From contig OX597817.1 in the NCBI GenBank assembly GCA_951406725.2, positions 8,680,001 to 8,744,000 of the forward strand: 64,000 nt of DNA, given 5' to 3'. The notes under the pieces were generated by a model, which was given only the letters and a program-made list of their open reading frames with translations, did not search any database and was not told the origin of the DNA. Position numbers and translations under genes: made by a program. The stretch is from Octopus vulgaris (Eukaryota). Numbering within the stretch: the stretch's first letter is position 1; each line of letters starts with the position of its first letter. Below, piece by piece: positions 490 to 57,264 of this stretch.

Positions 490-651
490 TATTAATAAAG
501 CTTCAAAGACATCACAAAAACTGTTACCCAGAGTTTCCCGTCCCCGTTCGCCAGACAGTTTTGGTTTAGATTTTAAACAAAATCGCCCGTCTAGCGGGAA
601 CGTGAAACTCTGGGTTACTGTTTTGTGATGTTTTCGCAGCTTTATTAATAA
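490..651. mobile_element. Foldback (inverted pair) of a Penelope-like pLTR fragment carrying a hammerhead motif
   Basis: Arms TTATTAATAAAGCT..CATCACAAAA..CCCAGAGTTTC (from 490) and GAAACTCTGGG..TTTTGTGATG..AGCTTTATTAATAA (to 651) are imperfect reverse complements; lies next to (TA)n. Confidence 0.6.
517..562 (-). ncRNA. Minimal type I hammerhead ribozyme-like motif (A6G core variant)
   Basis: Minus strand AAAACUGU-CUGGCGA-ACG ggga CGG-GAA-ACUCuGGGU-A-ACAGUUUU: 8-bp stem I, GUA triplet. Confidence 0.6.
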
Positions 652-754
652 CGCACATTACTCTACCTCCCGTATTCGAATACTATTTGTTTCCGTCTAG
701 TTTCGCATTTATGGGCTTACTCTGGTATATATATATTCTTTTACTCTTTTTTTT

Positions 755-960
755 TCTTTTACTTGTTTCAGTCATTTGACTGCGGCCATGCTGGAGCACC
801 GCCTTTAATCGAGCAACTCGACCCCGGGACTTATTCTTTTGTAAGCCCAGTAATTATTCCATTGGTCTCTTTCGCCGAACCGCTAATTGACGGAGACATA
901 AACACACCAGCATCGGTTGTCGAGCAATGCTAGGTGGACAAACACAGACACACAAACATA
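755..960 (-). mobile_element. SINE family A, 3' portion
   Basis: Matches recurrent TTTCAGTCATTTGACTGCGGCCATGCTGGAGCACCGCC tail seen many times in the window. Confidence 0.85.
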
Positions 961-1139
961 CCGCCTTACTTAATCTGTAGTGTTTTGCAAGTGCTAACGA
1001 TGATGCGGTAGAGTAGAGCAAATAAAGAAAGGATACAAGGGTAATATTTGAGAGAGAAAAAAAAACAATATGAAGGTTAGTGTGCTGCAGTAGAGATATA
1101 GGAAATGACGTGTTGCGACAATAAACAAAGGCATTGGTT

Positions 1140-1342
1140 TCAAATATTGGCACAAGGCCAGCAAGTTTGGGGGAGGAGTTAATTCGATTACAGTGCTCAA
1201 CTGGTATTTATTTTATCGACCCTTTAAAGACAAAAAGCAGAGTCGACCCCGGCGGAATTTGACCTCATAACGTCCAGATGGACGAAATGACGTTAAGTAA
1301 CTTTGCCCATCTTGCTAACAATTCTGCCAGTTCGCTGCCTTA
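1140..1342 (-). mobile_element. SINE family B (Nin-like central domain), diverged monomer
   Basis: Similar to AAGGCGGCGAGCTGGCAGAA..GTTCAAATTCCGCCG..GGTCGATAAA..TACCAG consensus of other copies. Confidence 0.75.
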
Positions 1343-2363
1343 ACGTTTATCTATCTGTCGGCTGTTCTTTTATAGTGATAACGATTTCTTTGGACCCTTC
1401 TTACTGTTCCACCTCTCCATGTTGCCGATATTTATCGGCCCTGGGATAGTTGGTGGTTTAATAGCTAAGACAAACCTCACTTAGATAAGAGCTTTAAACT
1501 GCAGCATTTTTAATTTGGATTAAGAAAAATGTGCATGAGAGCACATCTCGACAAAAACAATCTCCATAGACCCCGTAATTCCTTCACAGACACACACATA
1601 CACGCACAGAGGCATAAATTCACAAACACACACTCTCACACATACAAGCACACATCATACATCCTTGATTAAAATGAAAACCTATAAAAAGTTTTGTTTG
1701 TCTTTCAAAATATGAGCATTTGAAACGAACTTTACAAATATTTTTTTTACTATTATTTTTAATGTATTTGTTTCAGGAAGTAGAATTATTTTATTCCACT
1801 ACTAAAGCTAATCCTCAGTGAGTTTAGCATGATTAACTTTTAATCCTTTTAATATCACTGTTGTTTTAAATCATTTTAATCTTACAATCAGACAGTTTTC
1901 TCAGTGGTTTCTACCACTTTCCCCTGAACTGCTGTAAAATTAAAATTCCTTGTTTTATTTTTTAATTCCTGAATTCGGCTTCTACTTGCTGATCTGCCAT
2001 AGTTGTTCAATAGAGGTCAAATCTGAAGATATTCTTGACTAATAAACACATCAGCTTCATGATATTGGAGAATGGTTTCTGTTTAATTTAGGAAGACAAG
2101 CAAGAACGTTGCTGTATTGAACTTGCTTGTTCATATCTAATGTTTATGGGTTGTTCTATAAATGGTAATTTCGTAAAATGCCTTTCTGGTAGAAGCTTTC
2201 TCGTTGGGTATCCATTTAAATGCTGCATCATCCTACTTACTTGTGATTCTTGTTATTTAGCCGCTGATCAACTCTGAACGTGCTTGACCGTGATAAAAAC
2301 GCATTGCAGTCGTGACCAGGGTGTCTAATTGAATAATTTATCTAAAGCTATTTTTAAGAAATA

Positions 2364-2740
2364 CAAGGTACATTCTAGAAGATTTGAAGCATTTTCAGGA
2401 AAAGCGTTTATCAATTTCAAAGAAGTACTCTCTAATCTCCTTCAAAGTAGAATCCTCTGACTTTACTTTCCTTTGTGAAGGCCTTTGAAAGTCCTCCAAA
2501 GTGAAGGCATCCAGGACCTTTGTCATAGCCTCCTTCATCCTCTTCTTCAGATTAGGGAACAACTAAAGGTTACAGGGAGGAGAGCCTGGGCTCTAGGAAA
2601 GCTAAGGGACAGTAATGATGTCCATCTCCGTCAAGTAGTTGGTTACCAGGATGGAAATGTGGATTAGTACATTGTCCTAGTGCAGGTGTTGCTATGCTTT
2701 AATTTTTGAGGGGGATTTCGCTATTATTTCAAGCGACCAC
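2364..2740 (-). mobile_element. mariner transposon remnant (3' part of transposase plus TIR)
   Basis: Minus strand reads ..SPGSPPCNL*LFPNLKKRMKEAMTKVLDAFTLEDFQ, resembling mariner YSPDLAPxDFxLFPxLK; TA then CAAGGTACATTCTAGAAG end matches the TIR ending at 29914. Confidence 0.6.
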
Positions 2741-2805
2741 GTTGAGAATCCGTATCTAGCTCTGTACTAGCAAATGGTGAATAGCAATTAATAATTGGGT
2801 TGTCA

Positions 2806-3020
2806 AAGGCGGCGAGAAGGCAGAATTGTTAGTAAGCCGGGCAAAATGCTTTGCGGTATTTCGTCCGGTTTTACGTTCTGAGCTCAAACGCCTCCGAGTT
2901 GACTTTGCTTTTCGTCCTTTCGGGGTGAATAAATTAAGTACCAGTTACGCACTGAGGTCGATGTAATCGACTTACACCTCTCCTTCGATCTTGTTGGCTT
3001 TGTACTAAAAATGGAAACTA
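2806..3020 (+). mobile_element. SINE family B monomer
   Basis: AAGGCGGCGAG head, CCTTTCGGGGTGAATAAATTAAGTACCAG domain. Confidence 0.8.
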
Positions 3021-54814: not shown

Positions 54815-55010
54815 GACTCGATAGCCAGGACCTTCCTACTTCAGTATCATGATGATCTACTCTACTTAACGGCAAACCCAAATCTTTCAATAGACTCCTT
54901 AAAATCTTTGAAATATTGGTTACGTGTGCTATGTCTTCAATTTCCTTTTGCCATTTCACTTATGAAATAATAGTCATCTTAGAAGTTCCTCCGCAACCAG
55001 TACTGTGAAA
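54815..55010. repeat. 196-bp segment abutting (GAA)n, copy 2
   Basis: See copy 1. Confidence 0.9.
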
Positions 55011-55416
55011 TTTATTTGAAAACTGTTACTGCTAAGATATTCGAGTTGAATTTGCAATTTAAAAAAATTTTTTTATTGAATATTGATATCGTGTACGAGT
55101 TCAAATTTTCATTCGGAGTATCTTTTTTTTACTTTTTGTAACTATTTTCTTTTTCCGTTTGTTATGTTTCCATTTTACCTGAAATGAACCATTTCAAGTT
55201 CATTTGGGTTAAATTTCAAATCCGAAAAGAAACTGAAGAATATCGGAAGCCAAATTTCAACTGAAATTCCCCAAACACCCCGTAAAAATGCAATCTATTT
55301 GTTTATTTCTTCTTGATTCCTTACAACACTAAACCAACTTTAAGTTGTTGTTTAGCGTTGAGGCGCATCTCATATTTCATGATGTTATGCAATGGAATGA
55401 TAATGTTACTTTTTAA

Positions 55417-55862
55417 TTCTTTTACTCGTTTCAGTCATTTGATTGCGGCCATGCTGAAGCACCACCTTGAAGGGTTTTAGTCGAACAAATCGATCCAAAG
55501 AGCCTAGTACTTATTCTACCGGTTCTTTTTGCCGAAACGCTAAGTTACGCTGACGTAAATACACCAACATCGGCTGTCAAACGGTAATATGGGGACAAAC
55601 ACAGGCACAAAGGCACACATACATAGATACACACACACACACACACACACACACACACATACACAAACACACACACACACACACACACACACACACACAC
55701 ACACACATATATATATATATATATATGTATATGTGTATATGTATATACATACATATATACAACGGGCTTCTTTCAGTTTCCGTCAACTAAATCTACTCAC
55801 AAGGCTTTGGTCGGCTCAAGGTTGTAGCAGAAGACACTTGCCCAAGGTGCCATGAAGTGGGA
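55417..55862 (-). mobile_element. SINE family A, diverged
   Basis: Consensus match. Confidence 0.8.
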
Positions 55863-55869
55863 GCGGGGT

Positions 55870-56380
55870 TCTGACATGCCTTTGATGCATACGTCAGACC
55901 AGTCTATTCTGCGGTTAGCATTGTAAATAGATTTTGCAACTATATCATGCCTCAAGGGCAGGTAGTTTGTGGTAGTCATTTTGGGGCAACTGCTGATGAT
56001 ATGGCTAATATAACAGAGCTGCACAACGTGGGGCTTTGTCTCTCTTGTTTATCAAGTATTTAAAAGACATATCTTTTCTAAGTGGGATGTAATGTTTCTA
56101 TCGCAAGTCCAGGAGAAGCTACTCCTCCTCTCAACGCTTTCTGGCTTTCTAGATATGCACCCATTTTTCATGATATGATTTTTGTTGGAATGCAGCCTGC
56201 TTCTCCTTCAAGTTTCTGTTTAGGTAGGCCAATCCAGCCTCATTTGGGTCACATGAGACAGTTCTATTCTCAGAGTATCTGCACAGTAGTTCTTCTACTC
56301 TGAAGCTGCTGCTCTCACTCTTGAGTATGCATGGAAAGTATTCACTTTTTTCTTTACTGTTCAGCTGGTGTTGTTTAAGT
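55870..56380 (-). pseudogene. Decayed RLE-type retrotransposon fragment
   Basis: ISHIISSCPKM..YLPLRHDIVAK (CCHC/RHD region). Confidence 0.6.
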
Positions 56381-57000
56381 CAGTGCTACTCAAAGTGGTG
56401 ATCCGCGGACCGATGCCGGTACGCGGCGGGTTTCCAGAAAAGAAAGAAATGCTTATAAAATGCTTATGTATTATTGTATTATTTGTATACAAAATAAATA
56501 TAAGATAAAAATTGTCAGCTTTTATTTTATTCCAGTTACTGTTTACATCTCGTTCAGAGATTTATTATTGCTTGCAGACAGTTTTTCGAAATCAGTGACA
56601 CTGGCTACTGGGAAAAACATTAAATAGATATTTGCAAACAGGTCTCTCTTCATCGAAAACCGGTGATTACCGTACGTTGACAAGAGGCAAATACCTCGAA
56701 ACTGCAGTCCGTGCGTATCACTTAGGTTTGCGAGAGAGGGATGACCTCCCTTTGCAAATACCATAAGGGCACAGAAAGTGTGCCTAAAGCCAGCTGGAGA
56801 CGATGATCTCCTGGGGCTAAAAGCTACAGTAACACCCACGCTTAGTGGTTAGCCATATTGAGATGGCTAGTATACTTTACATTATATATATTGTTTCCGG
56901 TATAAATTAATATTACTAAGAAATATTACCGGTCTCTGGCATATTTGAAAGATAAAAGAAAACTTCCGGTACGCCACGCCAGATAGTTTGAGAGGCACTG
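56381..57000. mobile_element. hAT-Charlie-type non-autonomous element
   Basis: TIRs CAGTGCTACTCAAA / TTTGAGAGGCACTG; TSD GTTTAAGT / GTCAAAGT; internal DFEKLSAS transposase-end remnant. Confidence 0.75.
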
Positions 57001-57226
57001 GTCAAAGTGATACAATGCGACATTCAAAGGCTGTTTGGTTTAAAATGCCTCTACCGCCATCACTTCGTCTCGCATTAGCCCTGTCGGTGTCACTTTTAGT
57101 GTGGAAGTTGCCAGTGGTGCTCAGCACTTTCCGGTTTTCATGACCAGGCTGCGAATCATGTTGAATCGCTAGCTTCTGCACGCATTTTTTCTCTCCTTGT
57201 TTCTCTCCGTGTTTCTTTTCTGTGTA

Positions 57227-57264
57227 TCTTTCTGTTGAAGAGCGTAGGCTCGAAACGTTAAAGA
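57227..57264 (+). ncRNA. Very small (38-nt) hammerhead-like motif (A6U variant)
   Basis: UCUUU-CUGUUGA-a-GAGC guag GCUC-GAA-ACGU-U-AAAGA. Confidence 0.6.

Follow-up and report, generated by a model that had tools for sequence, protein, structure and literature searches.

Short repeats with hammerhead ribozyme folds, some with variant catalytic cores, in a 64-kb window of Octopus vulgaris DNA: probable relatives of Penelope-like elements

Dense and diverse hammerhead ribozymes of Penelope-like elements (PLEs) are a phenomenon known since 2014. Cervera and de la Pena (2014; PMC4209133) described heterogeneous minimal hammerheads at about 2,000-9,000 per genome, mostly single, with pairs on opposite strands, U3-A8 covariation and low activity of the dimers. 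According to Craig et al. (2021; PMC8557442), Hydra-clade elements target (TA)n and include one family from Octopus bimaculoides; in their File S2, 26 of 26 Hydra-clade hammerhead rows have a 9-10-nt AC...GT helix III and CUGA cores. Here, we analysed 64,000 nt of Octopus vulgaris DNA (contig OX597817.1, positions 8,680,001 to 8,744,000; "the window" is this whole stretch, and all coordinates refer to it), where an initial annotation, made from the letters alone, had reported about eight short elements with hammerhead folds. Throughout, statements on published work cover the sections and supplementary rows of these papers that are drawn on here.

Animal non-LTR (long terminal repeat) retrozymes consist of 150-450-bp tandem units (Cervera and de la Pena 2020; PMC7229834), and a preprint derives retrozymes from PLE pseudo-LTRs (Li et al. 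2026; 10.64898/2026.07.22.740005). In Poseidon of Anolis (Frangieh et al. 2024; PMC11167929), AT-rich DNA is nicked and priming takes place at two internal sites downstream of the hammerhead, which cuts only with protein; uncut RNA is the main insertion substrate, and the double change C3G/G8C partly restores cleavage. The function of PLE hammerheads is a standing question: they cut poorly, need protein and are dispensable for insertion in vitro (PMC11167929). As natural core variants, U3-A8 and A6C have been described (Perreault et al. 2011, PMC3088659; Naghdi et al. 2020, PMC7151607); A6C, a rare case from one phage, is slow in Mg2+ and rescued by Mn2+. The literature found on octopus or cephalopod hammerheads consisted of Craig 2021 and a squid genome paper, which counted 235 Rfam hammerheads, and was otherwise unrelated.

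The window has a GC content of 38.7%, is rich in microsatellites and short dispersed repeats and contains pieces of two non-LTR open reading frames (ORFs); its sequence was matched in DNA runs of five organisms. It was scanned with a strict type I descriptor that accepts any Watson-Crick 3-8 pair and one core deviation, with 40 local dinucleotide shuffles as control. Five matches were obtained, versus a mean of 0.22 (maximum 2) in the shuffles:

6855-6905, minus strand: intact hammerhead of family B, helix I 7/7, helix II 5/5, helix III 3/3, swapped G3-C8 core GUGAACA
46916-46964, minus strand: match within an ORF2 frame of a long interspersed nuclear element (LINE)
54076-54136, plus strand: intact hammerhead with canonical core, in a 190-nt insert (53968-54158) between (TA)n runs
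56671-56715, plus strand: intact hammerhead of family G, U3-A8 core UUGACAA, helix I of 6 bp, helix II of 4 bp
57227-57264, plus strand: minimal hammerhead of family F, core CUGUUGA (A6U), helix II 4/4, ACGU palindrome

The same five matches were returned by a looser descriptor at scores of at least 7, versus 0.2 (maximum 2) in 100 shuffles and two in a single reversed-sequence control. At low scores there was no excess (6 matches at scores of at least 4 versus 2.47 in shuffles), and nothing exceeded chance under 7. To escape circularity, a core-blind test was run in which the stems were scored and the seven core letters ignored. It yielded 13 structural matches (6.3 in shuffles), five of them carrying U4-G5, and all five had a Watson-Crick 3-8 pair together with A9, compared to a mean of 0.065 (maximum 2) in 200 shuffles. 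Three kinds of 3-8 pair were represented among these five, namely C-G, G-C and U-A. The enrichment of hammerhead folds over chance is real.

The match at 46916-46964 was not accepted as a genuine hammerhead, given its position in a LINE ORF2 frame, the C-G pair replacing G10.1-C11.1 and the G at position 6; it is probably a chance match. Once it is counted as a false positive, four intact-looking motifs therefore remain in 64 kb (family B copy 1, 54076, F and G), all in non-coding repeats. Together with the decayed copies described below, the window holds seven families (A, B, C, E, F, G and the 54076 element) at about 10 motif-bearing insertion sites. The Rfam scans showed no hammerhead family among the 150 rows listed of 322, these rows being microsatellite-driven microRNA matches, and none in all 33 rows over 53970-57540, although that region is home to three intact motifs; standard searches therefore undercount such motifs. 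Patterns of families F and B had no match in metagenome contigs, viral contigs or prokaryote genomes, as expected since the families are animal repeats.

Family B is represented by two insertions:

6735-6922, minus strand: copy 1 of family B, with a length of about 185 nt and a (TA)n run as insertion site
51918-52273: family B inverted pair, left arm 51918-52029 (minus), right arm 52034-52273 (plus)

Copy 1 has an extra base after A9 and a 6-nt palindrome as helix III, with a predicted cut after position 6862. In the pair, the left arm is truncated within helix II, and the right arm keeps the GUGAACA core and carries an insertion of about 25 nt in helix III. The swapped 3-8 pair is thus found in both copies that reach the core, two copies only, and from these sequences G3-C8 appears to be the natural state of the family; the sister at 52046, proposed in the initial annotation, was borne out by this shared core. 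As compensated pairs, G3-C8 and U3-A8 would likely cut at a reduced rate, by analogy with characterised variants. The helix III insertion (52084-52108) starts with letters found just upstream of its own ribozyme, which suggests a template switch.

Next to the intact motif at 57227-57264 lies the remainder of a very abundant repeat:

57138-57356, plus strand: family F, very abundant short repeat whose right end may lie beyond the aligned stretch

Contigs of four public runs (X1, X2, X14 and X15, of which X1, X2 and X15 are DNA and X14 is possibly RNA) were aligned to 56500-57356 at 80% likeness. In each of the four runs, family F was deepest on the ribozyme bin; the peak was sharpest in X15, the DNA run with the lowest word share of the three, with 3.18 million on that bin, 0.41 million one bin before and 1,133 two bins after it. 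In X1, the summed depth on the ribozyme bin was 3.85 million versus 35.5 in unique flank; this depth is no copy number, and if short contigs overlap up to 31-fold, the copies would number from thousands to about 100,000. Between 200 and 381 contigs per DNA run diverged before 57228 or behind 57267, which are the motif edges; therefore, diverged subfamilies of F have only the ribozyme in common. The motif keeps U4, G5, the 3-8 pair, A9, GAAA, U16.1 and a non-G at position 17, which was A in 89%, 69%, 37% and 70% of the depth across the four runs. No variant row fell on the core among 40 of 125 variant rows, and U6 is probably the family norm. No tandem joint of family F was present among the 15 joints listed out of 28. 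To judge from A6C, the A6U core would be slow or need help, and because changes at A6 are that costly, family F is a real puzzle.

Family G, which the initial annotation had missed, differs from the others in its tandem form:

56533-56883, plus strand: family G monomer, one unit of a repeat of about 358 nt, inserted in a miniature inverted-repeat transposable element (MITE)
35935-36137, minus strand: decayed family G relative that keeps the 5' strand of helix I and UUGA
19289-19587: inverted pair of family-G-related 3' parts, hammerhead absent, inserted in (TA)n

The motif has an 8-nt palindrome and a GUC triplet, with a predicted cut after 56709. Contigs of X1, X2 and X14 return 348 nt from the unit end to its start, plus 4-14 letters; these joints fit tandem DNA as well as circles. 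The unit RNA folded with z = -5.65, none of 100 shuffles being as good, two motif copies co-folded into a double-hammerhead dimer, and the unit had no Pfam match. No variant row was seen at positions 3 or 8 among the 40 of 125 rows. By its likeness to described systems, family G behaves like a non-LTR retrozyme. Since the window holds no PLE ORF, the term "non-autonomous", which the initial annotation gave to all the elements, is backed for this tandem family alone; for the others, an origin as 5'-truncated ends of autonomous elements is just as likely. In the pair at 19289-19587, a tail of about 45 nt (19540-19587) is present on one arm only and is identical in sequence to the head of the family G monomer. 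The monomer breaks a MITE-like element with terminal inverted repeats at 56381-57002, and the empty site, the MITE without family G, was found in single contigs of X1 and X15.

The three remaining families are decayed in the window:

489-725: family A, head-to-head inverted pair between (TA)n runs
517-562, minus strand: family A left-arm hammerhead with core CUGGCGA, a complete helix I (8/8) and a helix II decayed at its first pair
579-624, plus strand: family A right arm, decayed hammerhead, core lost (CCGUCUA)
36169-36722: inverted pair of family C; at its left end, a 47-nt piece is present three times
36414-36464, minus strand: family C left-arm hammerhead, helix III of 5 bp and loop intact, helix I and C3 broken
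36511-36561, plus strand: hammerhead in the right arm of family C, with canonical core and complete helix I (6/6), but broken in GAAA and in helix III
42636-42707, plus strand: family E copy 1 hammerhead (element 42568-42744), helix II 8/8, with U4C, G17 and a helix I mismatch
43865-43936, minus strand: hammerhead in copy 2 of family E (element 43828-43996), with canonical core and complete helix I (4/4) but a decayed helix II

In family A, the right arm extends about 75 nt past the left arm, a tail longer than usual for PLEs. Helix III of the left arm is a 9-nt near-palindrome of the Hydra type, and the cut is predicted after 525. Neither arm has A at position 6 (G in the left, U in the right), so that the template probably lacked A6. 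The arms of family C are broken in complementary places, and copy 2 of family E has an A-A mismatch at the base of helix II. The element at 54076 has a 13-bp distal helix, 54047-54059 paired with 54144-54156, and its helix III is identical to that of two Hydra-clade PLEs in File S2 of PMC8557442. Taking all families together, the CUGANGA / GAAA / UH core is present at 54076, 36517 and 43932 and departed from in A, B, F and G, while helices I and II with G10.1-C11.1 are intact in B copy 1, G, F and 54076 and decayed in A, C and E. Most copies in the window are decayed fossils. At the left end of family C, the 47-nt outer-end piece is triplicated at 36200-36342 (97% matches), possibly from repeated re-priming at the 3' end.

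The initial annotation was partly confirmed in its observation and partly supported in its interpretation. All coordinates it cited point at real motif-like sequence, and six of its eight sites hold. Those at 6855-6905, 54076-54136 and 57227-57264 proved to be intact hammerheads, whereas those at 517-562, 36406-36570 and 43865-43936 are genuine hammerheads recognisable through a second copy, but decayed; 42636, named as the sister of 43865, is indeed a related copy, although each of the two has further breaks. The other two sites did not stand:

39196-39350, minus strand: scattered core-like words without a complete hammerhead, by descriptors, folding and hand drawing
51572-51616, plus strand: possible decayed hammerhead (A9C) at chance level, by looser descriptor and folding

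The first was matched by none of three descriptors, folded with z = +0.17 and formed no helix I by hand, whichever of its two CUGA cores and three GAAA words were tried. The second is a single copy with a score of 4.1, within the chance range. A near-perfect palindrome of 45 nt lies at 39443-39487, just upstream of the former site.

As to general features, host elements of different families do not align with one another, as had been stated. The very short stem III was found as a palindrome of 4-9 nt in A, B, E, F, G and 54076, but family C has 5 bp and a loop. Inverted pairs, called frequent, occur at three of the eight sites. A position in or beside (TA)n was also called frequent: six of 12 units end within 3 nt of (TA)5+ versus 17% of random 200-nt stretches, a figure inflated by boundaries drawn by eye. 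The claim that the motifs are mostly invisible to CUGANGA searches was overstated, as the canonical core is present at four of the eight sites. Among the four variant cores proposed, GUGAACA is found in both core-bearing copies and CUGUUGA is probably a family norm, while CUGGCGA (one arm) and CUGAUGC (one copy) come from single decayed copies.

We consider it likely that the hosts are the 3' ends (pseudo-LTR stubs) of PLEs, together with small non-coding parasites that borrow their enzyme. Directly observed were the folds, the anatomy of inverted copies and one-sided tails, the surrounding (TA)n runs, the tandem arrangement of G and the high abundance of both F and G. Head-to-head inverted copies occur in families A, B and C and at 19289-19587, and in the A, B and C pairs the inner ends fall within the motif or slightly upstream of it. 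In families A, B, E and G and in the 54076 element, a distance of about 25-170 nt separates the predicted cut site from the outer end. To judge from the sequences, Hydra-clade anatomy and helix III fit A, C, E and 54076. The Penelope link made in the initial annotation is supported by this insertion anatomy and by helix III words common to Hydra-clade PLE hammerheads, but by no PLE ORF in the window.

By analogy with PMC11167929, PMC8557442 and PMC4209133, a PLE protein would bind the element RNA and nick AT-rich DNA. Reverse transcription would then start at one of two internal sites about 25-170 nt downstream of the hammerhead, leaving a one-sided tail, and uncut RNA would be copied through the ribozyme, often stopping or flipping there, which would give short stubs and head-to-head pairs truncated within or close to the motif. 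Where tandem copies are active, slow cleavage by a ribozyme dimer held together by the palindromic helix III, probably with help from the PLE protein, would yield RNA of unit length. This dimer cleavage through the palindrome is modelled on PMC4209133. A mechanism of the Poseidon type would account for stubs that hold the whole motif and end 25-170 nt behind it with a one-sided tail, and we infer that it may apply to the window.

Several results weigh against this PLE reading. The hosts are all short and without ORFs, as the initial annotation had said, and neither a PLE reverse transcriptase (RT) nor a GIY-YIG domain, which it had proposed to look for nearby, was found in the window (14 plus 150 frames scanned, partly overlapping, the longest of 415 non-repetitive ones); therefore, the link to PLEs is indirect. 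No window family corresponded to a PLE catalogued in the part of the Craig 2021 supplement compared, where matches were limited to motif words of 11-12 letters, and of 13 window motif terms searched there, three short ones matched, in the hammerheads of other families only. Seven of 12 sites folded no better than shuffles (|z| < 1), an eighth having z = -1.11, and no compensatory change was shown within a family. The descriptors yield false positives, since 46916-46964 is the fifth top match, lies in a LINE ORF2 frame and yet folds well (z = -4.44). The lowest-energy dimer was a double hammerhead for one of seven motifs co-folded, that of G. Also in G, the ribozyme is not the deepest part of the unit, being shallower than the 3' part, and is nearly absent from X15, and C11.1 is A in 9% (X1), 51% (X2) and 47% (X14) of the depth. 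Finally, U6 as the norm of F and U3-A8 as that of G rest on rows absent among 40 of 125. The idea that the variant cores are the "missing" Naiad hammerheads was not supported, as no window motif searched matched a Naiad consensus in an exact sense-strand search of part of that supplement, where line breaks can hide matches.

The strong form of the initial annotation, in which each family is an independent, non-autonomous retrozyme whose RNA cuts itself and forms circles before being copied back, agrees in outline with family G (tandem joints, a 358-nt unit, strong self-pairing) and with the short, non-coding nature of all hosts. However, the remaining families consist of stubs, single or inverted, in which the motif lies close to one end, as in the 5'-truncated PLEs of PMC4209133 Table S1, and the joints listed for F include no tandem one, so that we regard this explanation as unlikely. 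Somewhat more credit, though still well short of an even chance, is due to the idea that families with variant cores, F most of all, have lost cutting and retain the fold as a signal by which the PLE protein binds or primes. F has U at position 6, where the natural A6C variant cuts at less than 0.1 per min (PMC3088659) and cleavage in Mg2+ is strongly lowered (PMC7151607), ribozyme-dead PLE RNA inserts normally in vitro (PMC11167929), and the conserved block of F still covers the motif. A mere binding site, however, need not retain U4, G5, the 3-8 pair, A9, GAAA, U16.1 and a non-G at 17 all at once, and position 17 is A in 37-89% of the depth of F in four runs.

That the inverted pairs are MITEs or palindromic DNA elements with an incidental hammerhead look seems very improbable to us. 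It would suit the long inverted repeats at three sites and at 19289-19544 and the place of family G inside a MITE, but the same sequences also occur as single arms (6735-6922 and 56533-56883), the arms are not equal to each other, being cut short at the inner end and having a tail at just one outer end, and the core-blind test is independent of inverted repeats. Chance matches in a repeat-rich and AT-rich window are the favoured explanation for 39196-39350 and 46916-46964 and may also explain 51572-51616. For the motif set as a whole, chance is refuted by the counts of five versus 0.22 and five versus 0.065 in shuffles and by the motif-bounded conservation in contigs, and we assign it next to no probability.

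By differing at 3-8 and at 6, these natural families make it possible to ask whether selection acts on catalysis or on the fold alone. It is conceivable, though on balance doubtful, that F spread through several related species without the near-invariant A6, next to a family B with a natural G3-C8 core. If B and F both cut, natural hammerheads of animal retroelements put up with core changes to which any CUGANGA search is blind, and such genomes would hold far more of them than has been published. If F does not cut, selection would be maintaining a ribozyme fold for its use as a signal to the Penelope enzyme. Either outcome bears on the purpose of PLE hammerheads.

Other repeats in the window comprised a 435-aa open frame with a zf-RVT match among (AAT)n runs (22835-24142, plus strand), which we take to be the C-terminus of a non-LTR element with a restriction-like endonuclease, going by motifs. 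The stretch 22513-22837 recurs at 24017-24346, with a similar-looking fragment at 55800-56048 (minus). A 445-aa open frame with zf-RVT at 45902-47239 (minus), presumably a LINE ORF2 C-terminus, contains the hammerhead-like 46916-46964. At 8873-10400 (plus), broken transposase-like frames were recognised by eye, with no Pfam match at threshold. A 184-nt unit resembling a short interspersed nuclear element (SINE) forms short tandem arrays at 5839-6326, 27789-29010 and 41041-41527, with about 20 overlapping matches at several dispersed sites, and had no hammerhead match. A second SINE-like family of about 430 nt, with a microsatellite in mid-element, is present in about 13 pieces (17477-17950, 20205-20640, 26212-26667, 36767-37230, 60673-61089 and others).

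Compared to the PLE hammerheads of PMC4209133, the window motifs are alike in being type I, with an extra base after A9, G10.1-C11.1, a palindromic helix III and a U3-A8 core, and in forming a number of heterogeneous families that are mainly single copies or pairs on opposite strands. The representatives in Fig. S3 of that paper all have CUGA or UUGA with A6, as its descriptor required, and include no G3-C8, no U6 and no cephalopod, whereas the window has such cores. With the Hydra-clade PLEs of PMC8557442, the elements share an apparent (TA)n target, a hammerhead about 100-150 nt from the 3' end and inverted 5'-truncated copies; unlike them, they have no ORF in the window, and non-CUGA cores occur here. 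Helix III of family A differs by two letters from the word that 54076 shares with two Hydra-clade rows, and a mismatch at the base of helix II, as in family E, is seen in 14 of the 26 rows. The inverted arms, one-sided tail and (TA)n target at 19289-19587 are the arrangement drawn for PLEs in PMC8557442, where the tail is 30-40 bp.

Family G resembles animal retrozymes in its non-coding head-to-tail unit of about 358 nt, its 6-bp helix I and 4-bp helix II, its self-pairing and its PLE-type ends. It differs from them in the U3-A8 core, in that no target-site duplication was seen and in its many relatives that seem to be without the motif. Like the variants of PMC3088659 and PMC7151607, the cores found here are changed at 3-8 and at 6, but neither A6U nor G3-C8 is named in the parts of those papers drawn on. 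In the literature searched, which yielded engineered G3-C8 and natural A6C only, no natural G3-C8 or A6U hammerhead was found, the term A6U having come up in a paper on twister ribozymes (PMC11662667); the study of PLE hammerhead variants by Lunse, Weinberg and Breaker (2017), outside that scope, may contain them. What may be new are the A6U core in the very abundant family F, with a conserved block matching the ribozyme ends, and the G3-C8 core in both core-bearing copies of B, which is an engineered mutant in Poseidon (PMC11167929) and appears to be the natural state in family B.

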